Assembly (NCBI RefSeq): GCF_964213995.1
Contig: NW_027590197.1
Span: 744,001-779,552 of the forward strand
Source: Mustelus asterias
Taxonomy: Eukaryota
Reading direction: 5' to 3'
DNA length: 35,552 bases
Part shown: positions 20,771-35,552 of the stretch, in pieces
Position numbering within the stretch: position 1 is the first letter of the stretch
Layout: each line of letters starts with the position of its first letter
The notes under the pieces: model-generated
Told to the model about the DNA's origin: nothing
What the model saw: only the letters and a program-made list of their open reading frames with translations
The model's database searches: none
Program-made: the position numbers and the translations under genes

Positions 20771-21583
20771 GCCCCATCCTGGCTCAGCCACTGGAGGATG
20801 GTTCACATCAGAGGATGGGGGAGGGGGACAATAAATAAGAGGTTACACTTTGGCCTCAGATCAATGAGGACTCTGATCTCTGGGAAGGAAGGAAACCCTG
20901 GGAGGTGGGCGGGGAGGATTCACAAACACCCGCTGGAGGCCCCAACACCCCCAATAAGACCCATTGGTTTTATTGTCAGTCTGCAGACAGGAGCTGGAGA
21001 ACTGAACCCAGACAGAGGAGAGGGAGGGAGAAAACTGGGAGTGGAGGAAAGAAATGGTGAGATGGATTTGGATTTCAGCCCAGGGAGGAGGGAGAGTGTG
21101 TGGGACGGAGATTTACAGATTTGGGGGAACAAGAGAGGAAAAAATGTTCCAGACGAACTAGAATTGTCTGTTCAGAGTTTCTATCGTGTTCTGACAGTGA
21201 TGACTTTTCTAAACTGTTTTTACAGGATATTGGAAGTGAAAGATTGGCAGACAGAAAATTCAAACCGGACATCACATCTGACAAAGTCATTCAGTTCCTT
21301 CGGAGCTGAATATCATTGGTCTTTGAATATAGAAAGAGAAATATTTGTCTGTTCTGCCTGTGGGCAAAGAAATTAAACATCAGTGTGACCGGAAAAGCAT
21401 TGAGACAAACACACACCCGAGTGAGAGTGTTCCAGTGAACTGAATGTGGAAAGAGCTTTAACCAGTTACACAGCCTGAAAAAACATCACAGTTCACAGCA
21501 GGGTGAAACTACGTGTATGTTGTGTGTGTGGATGAGGCTTGAACTGATCATCCAACCTGGAGAAACACAAGGACACCCGCACC

Positions 21584-22564
21584 ATGGAGAAACCGTGGAA
21601 ATGTGTGGATTGTGGGAAGGGATTCGGTTTCCCATCACAACTGGAAGTTCATCGGCGCAGTCACACTGGGGAGAGACCGTTCACCTGCTCCGTCTGTGGG
21701 AAGGGATTCACCCATTCATACAACCTTCTGACTCACCAACGGGTTCACACTGGGGAGAGGCCGTTCACCTGCCCTGTGTGTGGGAAGGGATTCACTCGCT
21801 CATCCCACATTGTGACACACCAACTTGTTCACACTGATGAGAGAATGTTTACATGTTCTGACTGTGAGAAGAGTTTTAAATGCAAAAAGGATCTGCTGAC
21901 ACACCAACGAATTCACACTGGGGAGAGACCGTTCACCTGCTCTGTGTGTGGGAAAGGATTCATTCAGTCATCCCACTTGCAGACACATCAACTTGTTCAC
22001 TCTGATAACAAACTTTTTAATTGTTCCCACTGTGCGAAGAGCTTTAAAAATAAAAAGGATCTGCTAACGCACCAATATGCTCACACTGGGGAGAGGCCAT
22101 TCACCTGCTGTGTGTGTGGGAAGGGATTCAGCCGTCCATCTGCCCTATTGAACCACCAGAGAATTCACACTGGGGAGAGGCCCTTCACCTGCTCAGACTG
22201 TGGGAAGGGATTCACTCGTTCATCCAACTTATTGAATCACCAGCGAGTTCACACTGGGGAGAGGCCGTTCACCTGCTCTGTGTGTGGGAAGGGATTCAGT
22301 CAGTCATCCAACCTGCTGACACACCAGAAAGTTCACAGTGCGGAGAGGCCACTTACCTGCTCTGTCTGTGGGAAGGGATTTTCTCATTTATCTTATCTTC
22401 TGAAACACCAGCGAGTTCACACTGGGGAGAGGCCGTTCACCTGTAATGTCTGTGGAAAGGGATTTATTCAGTCATCCCACCTGCTAACACACCAGCGAGT
22501 TCACAAACGACTGCAAGGTTTGGATTCTACTCTTAATGATGCTGTTAATCATATCCAGGACTGA
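21584..22564 (+). CDS. C2H2 zinc-finger protein unit 4 (11 fingers plus an 18-aa C-terminal tail)
   Basis: Intact 326-aa ORF; acceptor at 21225; AATAAA at about 22612. Confidence 0.9.
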
Positions 22565-23639
22565 ATCGTGTTCACTCTGACAGTCTTCATCCGTTGAGGT
22601 TTAATATTCTGAATAAATATGAAATAGACCAGCTTTGTTTTTTAAAATTGTTGTAGATTTTTGTCTTTCCCACCTGACTGTTTAACATCACCAGGCTGGA
22701 GCTCAGAAAAGACAATCGGGGGTGGATCATATGGCAAACAGGACGCAGTCCTTCAGGGTCACAGAGGGACAAACAGCACTTTGCTCTTCCTCGTCTCTCT
22801 TCACGACAGCAAAGTACCCGTGTGGTTTAATCCTGAGATGTGCAAGAATCTCAGTCACTCCCTTCTATGTTTCAGCGCTCCTAGACCAGGAACAGAAGTT
22901 CCTTTACAACTGTGTTTAGAGTCAGGAAGAACAACAGTGAATGCTGGAAGCATGCTGCTAAATCAGAGATTGGTGCAAAACTGGGATCTGTTCCTGACTG
23001 AGAGTGAAATGGCAGGATTAGATTTCCAGACTGAAAATGCAGAAAAGTCTAAAATATTTTAATGTGTTTGTGTGTCAGTGCCAGTTTATTGAACAGAAAC
23101 CAGCTCAAAATAAATTGGTTAAAGTCTGCATTAAAGTAGCAGCTGGAGAGTTCAAAGGAACCTGTTATCTGCTGGGACAATTAGACAACAATTTGATTCC
23201 CACTGAGACCCACAGTGAATGAGGCTCCCGCGGGCCTCATACAAAAAGTGACGCAGACGTTTCAGGGTCAGAGAAAAAGAGTCGGATCTCAACGAAAATG
23301 CGCAGGAAATGAAGGCCACAATACAGCCCCAGCTGAATAATATTCCCCCACTGAGCTCAGCCATTGTCAGTGTTGTGAAATGTCACATTTGCCATCCTAT
23401 TATTCCCGGATCAAATCCAACCATTCTCCGATCCCATCCGCACAAAATCTGCAGATTACCCCGGGTGAATAACTTCCTTAATCTGTACTTAGAAAAATTC
23501 TGGATTCGGTGCCTATCTGCCCGGCGACACATTTTAAAAGTGATCTATTATCAAATGCAGCCTCAGAATTGTTCCATTTTCAAGTCCGTGGAGCAGAAAT
23601 AATAACTGATTGAAATCAGAGCTTTTCTATTTGGGGAAT

Positions 23640-24092
23640 AGAGGGGTACAGTGAAGATTTACTATGCTGATTCCTGGGATGGCAGCTCTGTCATATGAGG
23701 AGAGATTAAATCCGTTAGGATTATATTCACTGCGGTTTCGAATAGTGAGAGGGGGTCTCATAGAAACTTATAAAATTCTAACAGGGTTCGACAGGGTAGA
23801 TCCAGAAGACTGTTCCCAATGGTGGAATCCAGAACCATGGGTCATCTTTTGAAGATAAGGGAAAAACTGAGGTGAAGGGAAATTCCTTCATCCAGAGAGT
23901 GTTGAATGTATGGAATTCAATACCACCGAATGTAGTTGAGGCCAAAACGTTGTCTGATTTCAAGAAGAAATTTGATATAGCTCTTGGGGCTAAAGGGGTC
24001 GAGGGGGAAGGAGGATCAGGATATTGAATTCCATGATCAGCTATGATTACGATGAATGGCGGAGAAGGCTCCTGCTTCTAGTTTCTATGTTA
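23640..24092 (+). mobile_element. CR1 3' fragment
   Basis: LIPGMAALSYEERL..LGLYSL...RGGLIETYKIL. Confidence 0.85.
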
Positions 24093-24218
24093 TGAGTCCG
24101 TGAAATATTTCCTGGTGCAGAGTTGAGTGACTACTTATCCCCGGTATACTTACAGCACTAACTATTAATTATGTTGAGTCCTGGATGCTACTCATTAATC
24201 CCTGTACGTTAGGCTGCT

Positions 24219-24523
24219 GAATCATTGAATCCCGACAATGCAGGATGGAGCCTGTCCCGACAACAATCCCACCCAGGCCCTATCCCCGTAACCCACATAT
24301 TTACCCTGCTATCCCCTGACACTTAGGGTAATTTTGCGTGGCCAATCCAGCAAACCTGCACAGTTTAGGAATGTGGAGGGAAACTGGAGCACCTGAGGAA
24401 ACCCACGCAGACACGGTGAGAAAGTGCAAACTCCACAGAGACAGTGACCCGAGGCTGGAATCGAACCCGTGTCCCTGGGGCTGTGAGGCAACAATGCGAA
24501 CCACTGCGCCACCGTGTCACCCA
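24219..24523 (-). mobile_element. HE1-like V-SINE
   Basis: Reverse-strand head and V-domain. Confidence 0.9.
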
Positions 24524-24748
24524 TAAATGATTAAATTAGAAAAAAGGATCTGCCTTAAGAAAGATTGATGGACTGAGTTCTGAGGAAAGCGAGTTAACCA
24601 GTTAATGAGACAGAATAAGTGATGATGTGGGAGAGAGCAGAGAGAGAGCAAAGACTTTAGAAATAAGTTTACGGCCAGGGAAGGAATGTGATTGGAAAGT
24701 GCCAGCTATATTAAATCATTAACTAACAGTGATTGGTTCACTGGTTAC

Positions 24749-25071
24749 GGGGCGGCATGATGCCACAATGGTCAGCGCTGCTGTCTCACAGTGTCAGGGA
24801 CCCGGGTTCAATTCCGGCTTCGGATCACTTTCTGTCTGAGTTTGCATGTTCTCCCAGTGTCTACGTGGGTCCCCTTCGGGTTCTCCTGTTTCCTCCCACA
24901 GTCCAAAGATGTGCAGGTTAGGTTGATTGGCCATGCTAAATTGACCCGAGCGTCAGGGGATACGCAGGGTAAATACATGGAGTTGCGGGAGTGGAGCCTG
25001 GGTGGTATTGTGACCGGTATAGACTCGATGGGGCGAATGGCCTCCTTCTGCACTGCAGGGATTTTATGATT
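24749..25071 (+). mobile_element. HE1-like V-SINE ending just upstream of the TCR V promoter
   Basis: Head ggggcggcatg..., V-domain, tail attttatgatt. Confidence 0.9.
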
Positions 25072-25074
25072 CGC

Positions 25075-25180
25075 AGCTGACGTCAGCTCAGGGAGATGAG
25101 CCAATCGCAGCACTGAGAAACGCCTCCCTGTTTCTGAATACTTGAAGCTGCCTCTGATCTGAGTTCACTCTGTGATATAA
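25075..25180 (+). promoter_or_regulatory. TCR V promoter: CRE, CCAAT, TATA
   Basis: TGACGTCA at 25078-25085 inside the 14-bp palindrome AGCTGACGTCAGCT; CCAAT at 25101-25105; TATAA at 25176-25180. Confidence 0.7.
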
Positions 25181-25238
25181 GACTAGAGGCAGCAACTTAT
25201 TGTAAACATTGTCGCTGCTTACTGTCCAATCAGGAACC

Positions 25239-25284
25239 ATGTATCTCCTGTGTGCTTTACTGATAACAATGACCACGCTGCCCG
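25239..25284 (+). CDS. TCR V leader exon (L-PART1)
   Basis: MYLLCALLITMTTLP(G), hydrophobic; phase-1 donor GTGAGT at 25285; intron 25285-25369 ends ttgttgcag. Confidence 0.9.
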
Positions 25285-25369
25285 GTGAGTCTGAGCTCAG
25301 ATCCTCAGTGTGTGTTTCATGGGTTATATTTGTTCACAGATTTCTCACACATTCTACATTTTGTTGCAG

Positions 25370-25676
25370 GAATCAATGGCCAAGATTCAGTTTCCCAGGA
25401 CCCGGCTGAATTAACGGTTCAGGAAGGATTGAACGTAATAGTGAATTGTAATTACACAACAACGGATGCTTTTCCAAATCTCTTCTGGTACATCCAGTAT
25501 CCCGGGGAAGCTCCGAGATATTTACTGCAGAAATATAGCACGGGGGGCGGAGAAAAGTCTCCAGATTTCCCTGACCGGTTTTCTGCTGATTTGGACAAGG
25601 ACAAGAAAACAGTTCCTTTAAATATCACTGGGGTCCATGTCTCTGACTCTGCCGTATATCACTGTGCGCTGAGCCC
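25370..25676 (+). CDS. TRAV: T-cell receptor alpha/delta-type variable gene segment (V exon)
   Basis: In frame with the leader: (G)INGQDSVSQDP...NCNY...LFWYIQYPGEAPRYLL...DRFSADL...VPLNITGVHVSDSAVYHCALSP. Both Cys and the Trp of the Ig V-set fold are present, with no stops. Confidence 0.9.
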
Positions 25677-25715
25677 CACACTGCTACAGAGGCGCAGTGA
25701 GCCCGTACAAAAACC
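25677..25715 (+). other. Recombination signal sequence, 23-bp spacer
   Basis: Heptamer CACACTG (25677-25683), 23 nt, perfect nonamer ACAAAAACC (25707-25715). Confidence 0.95.
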
Positions 25716-25914
25716 TGCAAAGGCACTCTCACCTCCTCTCACTGAATCAGATCTGTGACCTGGATTGTGAACTGTTAATACAAACAGAACAATTGTATAA
25801 CGAAGAGTTAGTCCGAATGTTCTCATTCCATGGTGCTGAATGTGCCATTCTTGTTTAAACACTCTGCAATGCTGAGACTGGGAGAAGTGAACAACAGGGG
25901 GCAGCATTGCAGCT

Positions 25915-27010
25915 TCCATTTTACTATTATTCCTTCCAAAGTGGATAAGCTCACACTTACCAACGCTATACTCCATCTGCCAGATCCTCGCCCACTCACT
26001 TAGCCTATCCAAATCTCTCTGCAGACTTACCGCATCCTCCACGCAATTCACTTTCCCACTCATCTTTGTGTCATCCGCAAACTTTGTTACCCAACACTCG
26101 GTCCCCTCCTCCAGATCGTCTATGCATATGGTAAATACTTGAGGCCCCAGCACCAATCCCTGTGGCACGCCACTAGTCACCAACTGCCAACCAGAAAAGC
26201 ACCCATTTATTCCAACTCTCTGCTTCCTGTTAGATAGCCAATCCCCAATCCACGCTAACACTTTACCCCTAACTCCGTGCACCCTGATTTTCTGCAGCAA
26301 CCTTTTGTGAGGCACCTTATCGAACGCCTTCTGGAAATCCAAAAACACCACATCCACTGGTTCCCCTCTGTCAACCGCACTCGTTACATCAACATAAAAA
26401 TCCAGTAAATTTGTCAAACACGACTTTCCCTTCATGAATCCATGCTGCGTCTGCTTGATCAAACCATTTTTTTCCAGGTGTCCTGCTATTTCTTCCTTAA
26501 TGATGAATTCCAGCAATTTCCCAACTACGGACGTTAAGCTAACCGGCCTGTAGTTACCCGCCTTTTGTCTACCTCCTTTTTTAAACAGTGGCGTCACATT
26601 AGCTGTTTTCCAATCAGCCGGCACTTCCCCAGAGTCCAGCGTATTTTGATAAATTACAACCAACGCATCCTCTATTACTTCTGCCATTTCTTTCAGTCCC
26701 CTGGGATGCATTCCATCCGGGCCCGGGGACTTGTCTACCTTTAGTCCCATTAGCCTCCCAAGCACTACCTCTTTAGTAATAGTAATCATTTTAAGGACCT
26801 CATCCCCTACAGTCCCATGACCGTCAATTTTCGGTAAGCTATTTGTGTCCTCTACCGTGAAGACTGATACAAAAAACTTGTTTAAGGCCTCAGCCATTTC
26901 CTCGTTTCCCATTATTAAATCCCCCTTCTCATCTACTAAGGGTCCAACATTTACTTTAGCTACTCTTTTCCTTTTTATATATTTGTAAAAACTTTTACTA
27001 TCTCTCTGTC
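25915..27010 (-). mobile_element. CR1-clade LINE RT fragment, truncated at both ends, same subfamily as 4555-6442
   Basis: Open RT frame with DFQKAFDKVPH, SGVPQG and FADDTK; similarity ends at HFGRNNSK with no 3' tail. Confidence 0.95.
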
Positions 27011-27205
27011 CCTCCCCCCCCCCCCCTGGGCTTTGCCCCCCCCCCTGGGCTTTGCCCCCCCCCCCCCCGGGCTTTGCCCCCCCCCCCGGGCTTTGCCCCC
27101 CCCCGGGCTTTGCCCCCCCCCCCCGGGCTTTGCCCCCCCCGGGCTTTGCCCCCCCCGGGCATTGCCCCCCCCCGAGCATTGCCCCCCCCCGAGCATTGCC
27201 CCCCC
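27011..27205. repeat. GC-rich tandem repeat (GGGCTTTG-C7..12)n, about 10 units
   Basis: Visible directly; G-runs on the minus strand. Confidence 0.9.
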
Positions 27206-27272
27206 AACCCACACATCCTGGGACACTAAGTGGCAATTGAGCATGGCCAATCAACCTAACCTGTACATCTTA
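27206..27272 (-). mobile_element. HE1-like SINE internal fragment
   Basis: gacactaagtggcaattgagcatggccaatcaacctaacctgtacatct. Confidence 0.75.
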
Positions 27273-27277
27273 TAAAC

Positions 27278-27433
27278 AGTAAGAAGTCTCACAATACCAG
27301 GTTAAAGTCCAACAGGTTTATTTGATCGCACGAGCTTTCGGAGCACTGCTCCTTCATCAGGTGAATGGCCACTCACCTGATGAACCTGGTGTTGTGTGCC
27401 CACCCCAGTCCAACGCCGACATCTCCACGTCAT
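27278..27433. mobile_element. Penelope-type repeat, family 1: minus-strand copy (27278-27364) joined to an internally deleted plus-strand copy
   Basis: Homologous to 645-780 in both orientations. Confidence 0.8.
27328..27364 (-). ncRNA. Minimal type-I hammerhead ribozyme motif
   Basis: Reverse complement TCAC-CTGATGA-A-GGAGC(agt)GCTCC-GAAA-GC-T-C-GTGC: intact core, CUC cleavage triplet. Confidence 0.75.
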
Positions 27434-27696
27434 CTTATGGACTGCAGATTGATTCTCTGGAGAATCCTGTTCTTTCTCTCTATCAACATTCCTCTGCAAG
27501 TTTTATTTCCTTCAAGTACCCATCCAATTTCATTTTGAAATGATTGAATCTTCTGTTCCACCATCCTCATAGGCAGCGAGTTCTAGATCATGTGCTCTCC
27601 CTACCTAAATATAAATCTTCCTCAAATCCCTGCTCTACCACTACTCAAGTAATGTCCTGTATGTTACACTTTTATCCAGTATTATAGACATCTGTC

Positions 27697-28750
<1,054 letters not shown>

Positions 28751-29104
28751 TGACAGGGGTTGGATTCTGTTTTATTGCTGCTGTTAATCACATCCAGGAC
28801 TGAACCATGTTCATTCTGACAGTTGGTGAAGTGGGAGGGTCGGAGGGTTTCTTTCTGCTGGACTGGCCGGTCTCACGACTTTGCTTCTAGTTCGCTGATG
28901 CTCTTTGAGCCTGGGAGAGCACATTGCCACTGAAATGATCCACAAAAGCTGATGAAGGACATTTATTTTATCCTGGATAGTAAATAGTGTTTTTCCTACC
29001 ACTACAGGTAGATTTAAAATAAATACAGAAAGGACTGGAAAAACACAACACGTCTTGCAGCATCTGTGGAGAGAGAAACAGTGTTAATGTTTCACACTAC
29101 TGGA

Positions 29105-29285
29105 TTGGGAATCAATCTTGTAAACCTCCTCTGAACTGCTTCCAATGTATTTATATCCTTTGTTTAATAGGAGACAAAATTGTACCCTGTGTTCAAGGTG
29201 CAATCTCAGCAACGCCCTGCACAACTGAAGCATAACATCTTTACTTCTATGTTCAATTTCTCTCAGAATAAAGGATAGCATTCCA
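29105..29285 (-). mobile_element. Degenerate CR1 fragment
   Basis: MLSFILREIEHRSKDVMLQLCRALLRLHLEHRVQF. Confidence 0.75.
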
Positions 29286-29606
29286 TTTATAAGAACTTTG
29301 ATTTGTTTGAACTAAGATTTATGAGGGTTCTCTTGTTTACAATAACCTCCCCAATCGTAAATCACACCAGGTTCCAGTGACTTAATCATATGGCAAGAAA
29401 GAACACTTTAAATGGTGAATTCAGAAAGTTTATTAACCATTAAAAATGTAACGAGTCAGAAAGATAAAAAAGCAAAGTATCGATCAACAGCAAAAGGAGG
29501 AGAGCTTAACTTCAACTTCTCCATCCTTCTCAAACCAGGACATGAAGTGATGGCTCTGAAAACGTGGATAACTTGTAAAACCAGCAGCTCTCAACGTCTC
29601 TCTGTA

Positions 29607-29900
29607 GGGCACAGTGTGAGGCACTGCTGCCTCACAGCAGAGGGTTCGAGTCCCGGCTTGGGTCACTGGCTGTGCGGAGTTCGCCCATTCTCCCCGTGTC
29701 TGTGCAGGTTTCCTCTGGGTGCTCCGGTTTCCTCCCACAGTCCGAAAGACGTGCTGGTTGGGTACATTGGCCATGCTAAATTCTTCCTCAGTTTACCCAA
29801 ACAGGCACCAGAGTGTGGCGACTGGGGGATTATCAGAGTAACTTCATTGCAATGTTAATGTAAGTCTATGTGTGACACTAATAAACAAACTATAAAAAAA
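29607..29900 (+). mobile_element. HE1-like V-SINE, same subfamily as 37-338
   Basis: V-domain and identical tail type. Confidence 0.9.
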
Positions 29901-30556
29901 GTTAACTTTTAAAAACTTCTACCAGATTGGTTTCTCGAATCCCCTTTTTTATACTTTCAAAATGTAGAAAGCCATCCTCAGCTAATTGTTAGGAATTAGC
30001 CAATTGGTCTATAACTTGTCAATAATGAAATTGATTTGGTTTTTAGCTAATTGCACATATTGTCTTAATTTTAAGACATACCTTTCTCTCAAACGATATC
30101 TCTTAGCTTGGGGTAGCCCAAGTGTTGACCGATAATTGGTTCACATCAGTCATTCAATGTTGAGACATCTTGAACAGGAGCCGATTCATTCCCTCCAGTC
30201 AAGGTTAACAAGTCCTTTCATCTTTCTTTATTCTGTCAGCATGGGAAGGGAACATCTTATAATTCCCACAGCATTTTAACCATTCTTAAAGTGTTTATAA
30301 TTCTAAAAGCTATAAACCTGTGTTCAAATTTATATTTCCAGCCTTTATAACATATGTATTAATGAATCATTTATTATTTAATTGTCTCACAATTAATGCT
30401 GTCTATTTAACTAATCTGGCTGCTTTCCAATTGTGGGAACTTCAGGCCACAAAAAAGGTAGTTAGAGTCGTAGAGGTTTACAGCATGGAAACAGGCCTTT
30501 CGGCCCAACTTGTCCATGCTGCCCAGTTTTTACCACTAAGCTAGTCCTAATTGCCC

Positions 30557-30706
30557 TGGAATATTACTCATGATCTGTGCTTCCAAGCATTTTGAATGTG
30601 CATCTACAACAAGCAAAAACATGTGATTCATGAAAGGCCCCCCAAAGTCCACATGTAGTCTGGACCACGGCCTATCAGGCCACTCCCGAGGATGAAGTGG
30701 TAATGT
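30557..30706 (-). mobile_element. Ty3/Gypsy LTR-retrotransposon integrase fragment
   Basis: PLHPREWPDRPWSRLHVDFGGPFMNHMFLLVVDAHSK, the start of the rve core. Confidence 0.85.
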
Positions 30707-31400
30707 ACCCAGTGTGTTGTGGGGAATGAACTCAGAAGAATCATTCAACACTCAAACCTGATTCAATCGACAAACAGTTTATTGAGTTACGCCAGCGGGG
30801 AGAAGCCACAGGGGCTGACCATGTGCAACTCCACCCAACAAAGAATATCATCAATTCTTATCCAGTTACTCAGCCCATCCCGGCTGGACACAATCCAATC
30901 AGAATGGTGATAGATTACATACATTATAGGTTCAATAAAATTAGTATCTGGGCATTATGGGGCTTTGTGATCATCTCATGGACAGATAGGTGCCCCCATC
31001 ATGATGTTTTCCAGACCCCCTCGTCTACCATCCTTGGGGTTTTCTTTGTACATAGACTCAGTTTGAAAAGGGGTGGATTAAAAATTCTCAAATGGATGTC
31101 AGCACCCTTCCTTTGTTTCAATCTAATGACCACACGGTCTGGGAACATTTCTATTTAATAATCTCTCCTTTTAAACTCTGTTCTTCAGTATCCAATTCCA
31201 GAATTTTCCTTTTCATTGTGTTAATTGTGTCAGGATTAAATCTTTGGACCTGACAGGAAGTTTAACCCAAGATCAATCCAACACAGGATTGGTCAGAATC
31301 GTTTCATATGTACCAAATTTTAAATAACTGAAGGGGGCGACCTTTATGCTTAATATCATGGATATTTTTACGTGTGTATATCAAATTTATTTTAAAATAT

Positions 31401-31905
31401 TGTCAACAGTTCACAGCAATGCGATGACTCATGGAGAGGCTCCTTGCACCCCCTAATCACTTCAGACAGCCTTAATCACTTTAGACTCCAAGCAGGGAAA
31501 CACAGACAATAGCTCAACTGATTAGATTATGCAAGAAGCTCAAATCACAAAGGGAGCCCTCCAGAAACAGATCAGCCCAGGGGAAATGGGATCAGCTCCA
31601 CCTATCTATAATGGCTGTTTTAATATCTCGCTATTGTGCCACTGCTTTGTGTTATGAGCTGGTACTGATCATGTAACTTGTCGTAAATGTTGAACCTATT
31701 ACCATATGTTTGGCATGAAGTTCAAAACCCTATAAACTGTAAAGCGCATAATGGCCAGGCAGAGCAGTTGACGAGCAGCTGTCTCTCCCCAGGCCTGCGG
31801 TTTTGTTATTTTAAACAGAGAATAAAATTTGTGTTGCCTTTTTGTACTGTACTCATGTCTGCTTGTCTTTCATGCTGGTAGGAAGTGAGAAAACTTCCCC
31901 TTACA
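31401..31905 (+). mobile_element. Possible solo LTR
   Basis: TG...CA ends, TATAAA (~31731), AATAAA (31821); flanks atat/ataa give only an imperfect target-site duplication. Confidence 0.3.
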
Positions 31906-32769
31906 ATAACCATGACAAATTAAAACTCTCAATTTCATGAGTGAGTTTTATCTGGATTAAAATTCCCACACGTTTAGTAAAATATCCTGGAATCCTGTCT
32001 CTGGACAGTAAATATGGCTCCAGGTTCATAACTTTTGAAAAAAAAAGCTTTATTCATTACACTTCCATTTTAAAAATCTGTTTGATTTAAATCACAGACA
32101 AAAAACCTCAAAGCTTAAAGCGTTCAACCCACAAATATCATCCACACACCAACAGAGAAACTTAGCATGTGCTTTACAATAATAACCAAAATTAATTACT
32201 TAAGCATTCTTCTGATTCTGTTTTTAAACTCCCAAAAATGCCTTTAATTAAAGACTCAAGGTAAGGTTAATTCCCCAGAAAGATAAACCTTAACAAATGT
32301 AGCCCAAAACAATGATAAAACACATCTACAAACATCCACACAAAAACAAACAAAACACACAGATTCTCACAGCTTGTAAATTTCAAACAATGAATCCTCA
32401 GCATTCTCTCTCGCAGCTATAACTTCTTAAAGCGACAGAGCACTACAAGCTCACAACTCCTTGATTAAAATAAGATGCAAGATCCTTCATTGTAACTTAA
32501 CCCTTTTTAAGCCAACTTCCAAGGCCTGATTTTATCAGCAACATCTAATCTTTGTTAATTTAAAATCCCAAACACGTTACCACCTGCAAACTCTTTGTTC
32601 TTTATCTGGTGTTGAGGTGACAACAAAATAAAATTCTCAGTTATTCCAAATTCCTCCAGGGTATGCTTAAAATTTCCACATTTAACTGGCTCCAATAAAT
32701 CCACAATTATAAACTAAAATAGACACGAGTTTCTGGGTGATTTAAAAACAAGTTAAAAACAAGATGCCA

Positions 32770-35470
32770 GAGGAAAGATAGAACAGGAGGAAAGAAAGGA
32801 GGGGGAGTTGCACTTTTGATTCAGGAAAACATCACGGCAGTACTGAGAGGGGATATATCCGAGGGTTCGCCTACTGAGTCAAAAGGGTTGAACTGAGAAA
32901 GAAGGGGGAAATCACTTTGATATGGTTGTACTATAGGCCCCCAAATAGTCGGTGGGAAATTGAGGAGCAAATATGTAAGGAGATTACAGATAGTTCCAAG
33001 AAAAATTGGGTGGTAATAGTCGGGGATTTTAACTTTCCCAACATTGACTGGGACAGCCATAGTATTAGAGGCTTGGATGGAGAGAAATTTGTTGAGTGTA
33101 TTCAGGAGGAATTTCTCATTCAGTATGTGGATGGCCCGACTAGAGAGGGGCAAAAGTTCACCTCCTCTTGGGAAATAAGGAAGGGCAGGTGATAGAAGTG
33201 TGAGTGAGGGATCACTTTGGGACCAGTGACCATAATTCCATTAGTTTTAAGATACCTATGGAAAATGATTGGTCAGGTCCAAAAGTTAAAATTCTAAATT
33301 AGGGAAAGGCCAATGTTGATGGTATCAGGCAGGAACTTTCGACAGTTAACTGGGGGAGTCTGTGGGAAGGCAAAGGGACGTCTGGTAAGTGGGAGGCTTT
33401 CAAAAGTGTTTTAACCAGGGTTCAGGGTAAGCACATTGCTCTTAGAGTGATGGGCAAGGCTGGTAGAAGTCGGGAACCCTGGATGACTCGAGATATTGAA
33501 GCCCTCGTCAAGAAGAAGGAGGCACATGACATGCATCGGCAGCTGGGATCAAGTGGATCCCTTGAAGAGTTTCGAGGGTGTAGGAGTAGAATTAAGAGAG
33601 AAGTCAGGAGGGCAAAAAGGGGACACGAGATTGTTTTGGCAGATAAGGCAAAGGAGAATCCAAAGAGGTTCTATAAATACATAAAGTGCCAAAGAGTAAC
33701 TAGGTAGAGAGTAGGGCCTCTTAAGGATCAACAAGGTCATCTATGTGCGGATCCACAAGAGATGGGTGAGATCATAAATGAATATTTTTCATCATTATTT
33801 ATTGTTGAGAAAAGCATGGATGTTAGGGAACTTGGGGAAATAAAGTGATGTCTTGAGAAGTGTACTTATAACAGAGAAGGAGGTGCTGGAAGTCACAAAG
33901 CGCATCAAGGTAGATAAATCCCCGGGACCTGATGAAGTGTATCCCAGAACACTGTGGGAGGCTAGGGAGGAAATTGCGGGTCTCCTAGCAGAGATATTTG
34001 AATCATCGATAGTCACGGGTGAGGTGCCTAAAGATTGGAGGGTGGCAAATGTGGAGCCTTTGTTTAAAAAGGGCTGCAGGGAAAAGCCTGGGAACTAAAG
34101 GGCGGTGTGATTCACATCTGTAAGTTGTCAGAAGGTATTTGAGAGACAGGATCTACAGGCATTTGGAGACACAAGGACTGATTAGGGACGGTCAGCATGG
34201 CTTTGTGAGTGGAAAATCATGTCTCACAAATTTGATTGAGTTTTTTGAAGGGGTAACCAAGAAGGTAGATCAGGGCAGTACAGGTGATGCTGTCTACGTG
34301 GACTTTAGCAAGGCCTTTGACAAGGTACCGCAAGGTAGGTTGTTGCTTAAGGTTAAATCTAATGAAATCCAGGGTGAGTTAGCCAAATGGATACAAAATT
34401 GGCTTGATGACAGAAGACAGAGGGTGGTTGTAGAAGGTTGTTTTTCAAACTGGAGCCTGTGACCAGCGGTGTGCCTCAAGGATCGGTGCTGGGTCCACTG
34501 TTATTTGTCATTTATATTAATGATTTGGATGAGAATGTAGGAGGCATGTGTAGTAAGTTTTCAGATGACACCAAAGTTGGTGGCATTGTGGACAGTGGAG
34601 AAGGCTATCTAGGATTGTAGCGCGATCTTGATCAATTGGGCCAGTGGGCTGACGAATGGCAGATGGAGTTTAATTTAGATAAATGCAAGGTAATCCATTT
34701 TGGGCGATCGAACCAGGACAGGACTTACTCAGTTAATGGTAGGGTGTTGGGGAGAGTTACAGAACAGAAATCTAGGGGTACAGGTACATAGCTCCTTGAA
34801 AATGGAGTTGCAGGTGGACAGAGTGGTGAAGAAGGCATTCTGCATGTTGGTCAGAACATTGAATACAGGAGTTGGAATGTCTTGTTGAAGTTTTACAAGA
34901 CATTGGTAAGGCCACACTTGGAATACTGTGTACAGTTCTGGTCACCCTATGATAGAAAGGATATTATTAAACTAGAAAGACTGCAGAAAAGATTTACTGG
35001 GATGCTACCGGGACTTGATGATTTGAGTTATAAAGAGAGGCTGGATAGACTGGGACTTTTTTCCCTGGAATGTAGGAGGCTTAGGGGTGAACTTATAGAG
35101 GTCTATAAAATAATGAGGGGCATAGATCAGCTAGATAGTCAATATCTTTTCCCAAAGGTAGGGGAGTCTAAAACTAGAGGGCATAGGTTTAAGGTGAGAG
35201 GGGAGAGATACAGAAGGGTCCAGAGGGGCACTTGTTTCACACAGAGGGTGGTGAGTGTCTGGAAAAAGGTGCCAGAGGTAGTAGTAGAGGCAGGTACAAT
35301 TTTGTCTTTTAAAAAGCGTTTAGACAGTTACATGGGTAAGATGGGTGTCGAGGGATATGGGCCAAACGTGGACAATTGGGATGAGCACAGGGGTTAAAAA
35401 AGGGGCGGCATGGACAAGTTGGGCTGAAGGGCCCGTTTCCAAGCTGGAAACCTCTATGACTCCATGACTA
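32770..35470 (+). mobile_element. CR1-clade LINE, endonuclease to RT to tail, multiply frameshifted
   Basis: YYRPPNS...VIVGDFNFPNIDW (APE endonuclease), RT motifs, tail ctctatgactccatgact. Confidence 0.95.
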
Positions 35471-35552
35471 AATCAACTGTCTGCTGAAAGGGTTAACTTT
35501 TCTACAGAACCGAAAGGGGTGGGGAGTGAGAAGAAACTTGGCACACAGTTAC

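Follow-up and report, generated by a model that had tools for sequence, protein, structure and literature searches.

An intact TCR alpha/delta V segment on a piece of V array inside a ZNF cluster of Mustelus asterias, present in thirteen near-identical duplicated blocks

Introduction

Orphons of immunoglobulin (Ig) and T cell receptor (TCR) genes are V segments that were copied from their array together with flanking DNA and that are found elsewhere in the genome than the locus, in most cases on a different chromosome. In elasmobranchs, V exons that belong to the TCR alpha/delta type have been described between IgH clusters, spread over megabases and in both orientations, and one TCR alpha C per species is given in the 30 of 32 'TCRa' rows of Table S1 of that study that were covered (PMC12227049, main text and supplement files). 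In the human IGL locus, ZNF280A, ZNF280B, PRAME and GGTLC2 separate V segments from J-C, and they are deleted on distal V rearrangement (PMC9282919). Two further systems concern rearrangement at V segments itself. VH replacement makes use of a 3′ cryptic RSS with the heptamer TACTGTG, which is embedded in the V and lacks a conserved nonamer (PMC3526766, accessible part), and germline-joined shark Ig genes contain V-J joints that have lost the RSS and that show possible P bases (PMC2193156, accessible part).

The present study deals with a window from the genome of Mustelus asterias, i.e., the whole stretch of 35,552 nt that was analyzed. A sequence-only reading had described a complete TCR alpha/delta V segment alone within a C2H2-ZNF cluster and had treated this as surprising. 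The surprise was overstated, because scattered shark V exons (PMC12227049, in the parts named above) and ZNF passengers in human IGL (PMC9282919) had already been published. In the accessible part of PMC10751288, ZNF genes are mentioned around MHC-Ia-like genes only. A literature search, mostly without subscription papers, yielded neither an interleaving of TRAV and ZNF genes in sharks nor two shark TRAC, which is weak evidence for absence.

Results

Anatomy of the V segment and its ZNF neighbors

The V segment, its promoter motifs and the two ZNF genes next to it were directly observed in the window:

25074, plus strand: E-box CAGCTG
25078, plus strand: CRE TGACGTCA, the sole CRE of the whole window
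25101 and 25176, plus strand: CCAAT and the TATA-like TATAAG, respectively
25074..25181, plus strand: V promoter motif block (E-box, CRE, CCAAT, TATA-like)
25239..25284, plus strand: leader exon, ATG at 25239
25285..25369, plus strand: GT-AG intron, 85 nt
25370..25676, plus strand: open TCR alpha/delta V exon (window scan, Pfam, PDB matches)
25677..25715, plus strand: 23-RSS of the intact V (CACACTG, 23 nt, ACAAAAACC)
21548..22564, plus strand: C2H2-ZNF open frame with 11 fingers, the upstream neighbor, co-duplicated with the V and common to other copies
28292..28750, plus strand: C2H2-ZNF open frame with 5 fingers, the downstream neighbor, co-duplicated with the V

The earlier description of an intact V segment with promoter, leader, GT-AG intron, open exon and near-consensus 23-RSS was borne out by the sequence scan, Pfam and PDB, and so was the presence of ZNF paralogues on either side, i.e., C2H2 arrays with 6, 8, 12 and 11 fingers upstream and 5 fingers downstream. 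The leader frame is maintained in the V exon, which is free of stops and contains the Cys, the Trp and the D-x-A-V-Y-H-C motif. The exon matched the Pfam V-set (1e-17), and its best single-domain PDB matches were TCR alpha V domains. The heptamer of its 23-RSS has one mismatch, and the nonamer is perfect. The segment thus has the structural features of a functional TRAV/TRDV segment, namely a split leader, a GT-AG intron, an open exon, Cys/Trp/Cys, and a 23-RSS with CAC heptamer and nonamer. The PDB matches and a relative upstream of D/J on contig C546 place it closer to TCR alpha/delta V than to Ig V. A search for longer, full-length protein relatives of the V gave no scored match.

The CRE, CCAAT and TATA motifs are all present in 13 of 13 copies of the segment (see below) and in 15 of 17 relatives from V arrays, while the CRE is missing from the other two. 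Because of this conservation in the array relatives, the promoter motifs are not chance matches.

It had also been stated that no other V, D, J or C segment was recognized in the window. A six-frame scan of the window indeed detected neither a V exon other than 25370-25676 nor a J motif. However, two signals passed an RSS scan, 25677-25715 and 23211-23249, and the latter, which is preceded by a V stub of 10 nt, had been overlooked.

The V segment lies on a moved piece of V array

The second RSS marks the left end of a piece of foreign origin:

23201..27198: piece of TCR alpha/delta V-array origin, about 4 kb
23201..23210, plus strand: left junction, terminal 10 nt of an upstream TRAV fused to the ZNF 3′ flank (comparison of copies, array and host)
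23211..23249, plus strand: orphan 23-RSS of the lost upstream V (CACAGTG, 23 nt, ACAAAAAGT)
25914..27002, minus strand: CR1-like LINE fragment, 5′-truncated (RVT_1; Pfam and array comparison)
27014..27205: C-rich minisatellite, 79-83% like the minisatellite in array locus L062

The donor was identified as V pairs repeated in tandem within dense arrays, the copies of which align over 23201-26717 at 93-97% identity and have a whole V upstream. This second V was complete in five of the five array copies shown, and of this V the window retains no more than the terminal 10 nt and the RSS. Because the RSS at 23211-23249 bears the final 10 nt of another V, the intact V represents the remaining member of a V pair. 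The spacer of the orphan RSS is an inverted repeat, and the signal is situated on the strand of an intact ZNF frame, about 650 nt past its stop. If the signal were used, ZNF 3′ DNA would be joined to a J, and no receptor would be made.

The left junction is exact. Seven of eight array copies align to exactly 23201, the junction is the same in all 12 other carriers, and 17 of 17 non-carrier host paralogues run on with host sequence past this point. The host continuation was not found anywhere later in the window. The dinucleotide CA is common to host and donor, i.e., there is a microhomology of 2 nt, and the donor break is situated 0-2 nt behind an embedded heptamer, TACTGTG, without loss and without added bases. 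A clean insertion or transposition with target duplication was rejected from the comparison with the host paralogues; there is no target duplication.

The right junction is approximate. The final C-run of the minisatellite (27199-27205) is likely, as judged from the alignments, to be the junction with ZNF-cluster DNA, and four of the four host paralogues shown align from 27199/27200. Six array copies share this LINE insertion, in a shorter form than that of the window. Shared derived alleles extend to 26671, and therefore the LINE represents one insertion that was later shortened in the six sampled array copies. As a different right junction, a LINE-LINE crossover was considered and rejected, because the alleles that window and array share against dispersed LINE copies reach 26671. 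Among the top 40 matches, no array copy combined the longer LINE with the minisatellite, and for this reason we infer, rather than observe, that 26718-27198 also belongs to the V-array piece and that the piece ends there. Taken together, the junction comparisons revealed a moved piece of about 4 kb that links two distinct ZNF-cluster sequences, each end having a short stretch of homology.

Thirteen copies of the block originated from one capture

The genome of the animal itself was searched with the V protein, and 150 of 1888 candidates were scored. Among these 150 matches, 13 were 100% identical in protein, each on a different contig, and the next 20 had identities of 92-95% and were situated on contigs rich in V hits. 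The segment had been regarded as a lone one, which is contradicted by 13 near-identical copies on 13 contigs. Comparison of the copies yielded one further feature:

21062..35552: segmental duplicate core common to the copies, continuing past the window end in most of them

The 12 other copies are 97.5-100% identical to the window over at least 15 kb, including both ZNF neighbors, except for the copy on C1203, which is truncated by the end of its contig. The outer flanks diverge at differing places. The block is thus larger than 1 kb, more than 90% identical, present at several places and surrounded by distinct flanks, as is expected of a segmental duplication. The question raised in the sequence-only reading, whether other V copies have the same ZNF neighbors, was therefore answered positively for all 13. 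Within the TCR-derived part, 11 copies were compared with the window and exhibited 0-10 differences per 3517 sites, and the divergence among copies is about 0.1-0.3%. The copy on C242 is near-identical to the window over 14 kb; these two may be alleles, and the number of loci is thus possibly smaller than 13. The copy on C89 has no ATG. Twelve of the 13 copies, including that of the window (contig C165), are on unplaced contigs, and the carrier flanks that were read contain no gaps.

When 30 promoter-to-RSS sequences were arranged in a tree, the 13 copies formed one group with 100/100 support against the 17 array relatives. The single group, the shared block and the common junction demonstrate one capture, which was followed by recent segmental duplication.

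The group has a fixed divergence of about 2.4% from the array copies. The V exon contains 1 fixed difference per 307 nt, which is synonymous, in comparison to 38 per 1560 non-coding nt (Fisher p 0.014). The tract of low divergence extends into non-coding DNA, with 0 fixed differences at 25716-26137. As the tract enters non-coding DNA and array polymorphism lowers the counts, gene conversion from the array explains the conservation of the V exon as well as selection does. In the leader, 5 of 46 nt differ between the group and all 17 array relatives. The group leader, MYLLCALLITMTTLPG, is thus a useful marker for repertoire data.

V islands, ZNF arrays and two TRAJ-TRAC blocks

The genomic surroundings of the V family were characterized as well. 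Nineteen of 20 other dispersed V loci contained 2-4 V-like hits per 10 kb, and two of the 20 had a ZNF array. Many other dispersed V hits contain stops. A five-finger ZNF piece was present in two of 35 array loci. These two pieces are situated within the dense V array of contig C232 (L128:6085-6421 and L132:5445-5781), and their arrangement is the reverse of that in the window. C1-set exons, probably of IgH, occur scattered over C71 and contigs related to it.

J-C blocks were reached via a perfect 12-RSS and by scans for J signals and motifs. Two TRAJ-TRAC blocks that look complete were found. The one at C71:18,371,970-18,431,900 (L149-L155) comprises a C exon and 35 J motifs, and the one at C546:137,546-242,100 (L159-L170) comprises a C exon and 130 J motifs. 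These were the only two TRAC-like exons found; each is accompanied by a transmembrane exon, and a search with Pfam PF09291 did not detect TRAC. The two C domains are 75% identical, which is too distant for alleles, and the sequences suggest that the TCR alpha locus may be duplicated. Such a duplicated locus may even be of higher interest than the V among ZNF genes.

The sequence-only reading had also proposed a look for TRAJ and TRAC on flanking DNA, and they were found on C71, the scaffold that bears one of the copies, where ZNFs immediately precede the Js. ZNF arrays are located 10-30 kb upstream of the J block, and the 120 kb read there are gap-free. The C71 copy of the V is on the same strand as the J block and 3.2 Mb upstream of it by scaffold position, C71 having gaps, e.g., in L117. 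By this position it lies in cis with TRAJ/TRAC, and it is thus not an orphon in the sense of a segment outside the main locus and unlinked to J and C. On C546 a V relative is situated upstream of D/J, ZNFs lie between V and D-like segments, and a gap divides these from the J block. The D-like segments with RSS are found at 113.6, 120.8 and 121.3 kb (C546:113,600-129,749; L171, L158) and are followed by the scaffold gap. The motif scan of C546 before the first J revealed no TCR delta C exon. From this organization we infer that the contigs are parts of the shark antigen-receptor chromosome, whose V islands are interspersed with Ig clusters and ZNF arrays, all of them reshuffled by segmental duplication.

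Presence in read data and expression of the V family

Contigs from runs X7 and X9, which belong to two studies, were equal to the window at sites that separate the group from array copies, and the diagnostic sites (4 and 7 in X7, 5 in X9) were matched without difference. None of the 32 pieces listed spanned either junction. In runs X6-X8 contigs of array type or of other alleles prevail in many places, and such contigs cannot prove absence.

No RNA run among those listed contained the V of the window, and a rearranged transcript of this copy was not seen. In four runs of another organism, which are RNA by guess, relatives of the V were present at 90-99% identity, and the cover was restricted to the V exon. 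In one of the four, the leader of a relative was joined directly to the V exon at the same acceptor. No J was seen with the relatives in these four runs. The exon-only cover and the leader-exon splice make it likely that the V family is expressed. As far as sequence data can tell, the family is thus likely in use, a claim that covers the relatives and not the copy in the window.

Stub scans, other breakpoints and signal joints

A local scan of 1.56 Mb found one stub type among 120 distinct RSS contexts. For the whole genome, the first stub pattern demanded a strict heptamer and nonamer, and only about 42% of random flanks pass it. It had 74 matches: 13 were junctions of the window type, 20 were light-chain J signals on C8 (2 viewed), 18 looked like V genes with extended ends (both of the 2 that were checked proved to be V), 1 was a signal joint, and 22 were scattered. 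A genome-wide pattern for families with 8-nt stubs had 0 matches. Most other V islands exceed the 10 kb that were read, and the end of L117 falls in a gap.

A V-family piece of 376 nt was discovered in LINE-like DNA on a large contig (C24:38,776,763-38,777,138; L110:4764-5139). It extends from mid-leader to FR3 and includes the intron, is 94% identical to an array copy, and has neither end at an RSS.

Two perfect 12/23 signal joints were also observed. One of them, with two heptamers head to head, is a single copy at C122:398,901-398,967 (L258:5002-5068) and is followed by stacked 23-RSS copies with a spacing of 61 nt. The other is located at C8:50,402,750-50,402,816 (L261) between an intact light-chain V and J that belong to one cluster, and it is missing from the one sister cluster that was viewed. 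Both joints may be germline or somatic.

Discussion

We favor, with a probability of roughly 0.7, the reading that an intact V was moved on a piece of V array of about 4 kb to a place between ZNFs, was likely joined there by microhomology, and was then copied together with the ZNFs into 13 near-identical blocks. One or two ordinary end-joining events would form both ends, with the CA (2 nt) on the left and the C-run on the right, and host DNA would be lost at the joining without a target duplication. Segmental duplication would then copy the V piece together with its ZNF neighbors, so that these, and not service in a receptor, would drive the copy number. Copies in cis with a J block could be used as distal V segments, and, from geometry only, distal V-J joining would be predicted to delete or invert the intervening ZNF genes as bystanders. 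The sequence-only reading had offered two possibilities. The first, a V array interdigitated and co-duplicating with ZNF genes, is supported by the 13 copies with the same ZNFs, by other V islands beside ZNF arrays and by the TRAJ-TRAC block, preceded by ZNF genes, on the scaffold of the C71 copy. The second, a recent intact orphon, is no more than a loose fit: the piece left a dense V array, but the contigs still bear V and C1-set exons and, on C71, TRA J/C.

Whether the copies are of any use to the animal is a separate matter. They might be useless passengers beyond the reach of the TRA enhancer and the J block, which are intact only through their youth, and we regard this as a serious possibility at somewhat less than even odds. 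The 0.1-0.3% divergence among copies represents too few differences to require selection, the C89 copy has lost its ATG, the leader has its five fixed changes per 46 nt, 12 of the 13 copies are on unplaced contigs, and stops occur in many other dispersed V hits. Against this, none of the 13 copies has damaged promoter motifs or a damaged RSS, and the V exon has a low number of fixed differences, with which selection or gene conversion is in accord. The passenger reading concerns use only and is compatible with an origin by microhomology capture. An assembly artefact, or a somatic rearrangement in the sequenced tissue, would in contrast remove the finding altogether. The region is repeat-rich and mostly unplaced, and no listed contig bridges the junction. 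However, the junction is alike in every one of the 13 copies, which have distinct SNPs and differing outer flanks, and hence the assembly chimera that had been named as a possible refutation is very unlikely. In addition, the carrier flanks read were gap-free, the group has its fixed divergence of about 2.4% from the array copies, and the diagnostic alleles are present in runs of two studies. This explanation is already largely refuted, and its probability is very small.

The left end deserves separate consideration, because ordinary repair leaves its coincidence with the border of a cryptic heptamer unexplained. It could be that RAG in the germline cut the upstream V at the embedded cryptic heptamer or, equally, at the forward CAC 10 nt before its true heptamer, that the freed end was joined to a break in the ZNF cluster, and that duplication amplified the product; we consider this unlikely. 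A random break would fall within a 3-nt window at such a border with a chance of about 0.06% and within a 20-nt window with one of 0.4% (72 V-RSS per 350 kb array), yet this is a single event that was spotted post hoc, and none of four other resolved ends (the right end of the window piece, the left end of L108 and both ends of L110) is at an RSS or a cryptic heptamer. The cryptic heptamer has no nonamer (0/9 match at 12 nt and 4/9 at 23 nt), which is likewise missing from the known VH-replacement signal TACTGTG (PMC3526766, accessible part), and the intact 23-RSS only 10 nt away stayed uncut. RAG-like joining in shark germ cells has been argued for (PMC2193156, accessible part), and in mouse B cells RAG-released fragments join RAG-independent breaks (PMC5339680, accessible part); but at the break the host DNA lacks a CAC, N/P bases, a partner RSS and a target duplication are absent, the right end is at a C-run, and the 2-nt microhomology suffices for ordinary end joining. 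The assembly does contain the two perfect 12/23 signal joints, one of them on a V-bearing contig, but they are single copies and possibly somatic, and the genome-wide patterns revealed no second stub. A literature search, mostly without subscription papers, found nothing on germline cuts at cryptic heptamers, which again is weak evidence for absence. That shark germline RAG moved a working V into a ZNF cluster, where it was amplified 13-fold, and that RAG is still reshaping the antigen-receptor chromosome and seeding usable V islands, is therefore a doubtful proposition. If the left junction were nevertheless a RAG product, germline RAG would act not only in Ig V-J joining but also in joins that involve non-immune DNA, and junction positions across shark genomes would offer a countable test of RAG as a germline evolutionary force, a long-open question.

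The favored reading, capture by ordinary end joining and subsequent segmental duplication, provides a base-level picture of how TCR alpha/delta V segments are scattered in sharks: an excised V pair leaves its tandem array and is then carried along by duplications of a ZNF cluster. It helps to account for the poor assembly of the chromosome and for the occurrence of one V in a dozen identical copies, which matters when somatic mutation is called in shark TCR alpha.

Comparison with known systems underlines these points. VH replacement involves the same heptamer, a break at its 3′ border and a short V stub that is left behind (PMC3526766, accessible part), but it is a somatic V-to-V event in B cells, whereas the partner in the window is a ZNF flank, the product is inherited, and a role of RAG is putative. 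With the germline-joined shark Ig genes (PMC2193156, accessible part) the locus shares an inherited rearrangement at antigen-receptor segments; in contrast to these genes, the junction in the window retains the RSS and forms no coding joint. The scattered V hits and C1-set exons of C71 and its related contigs resemble the elasmobranch complex of PMC12227049, while the main text and two supplement files of that study contain no mention of ZNF genes, no V-ZNF co-duplication and no junctions; and the genome of Mustelus asterias has two TRAC-like C in comparison to the one per species in those 30 rows of its Table S1. As in human IGL (PMC9282919), V segments are set apart from J-C by ZNF genes, but there a few single genes are found within a V array, whereas here the V lies in large ZNF arrays and was amplified with them. 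The V was copied out together with its flanks, as is typical of orphons, and, unlike orphons, at least one of its copies shares scaffold and strand with a TRAJ-TRAC block.
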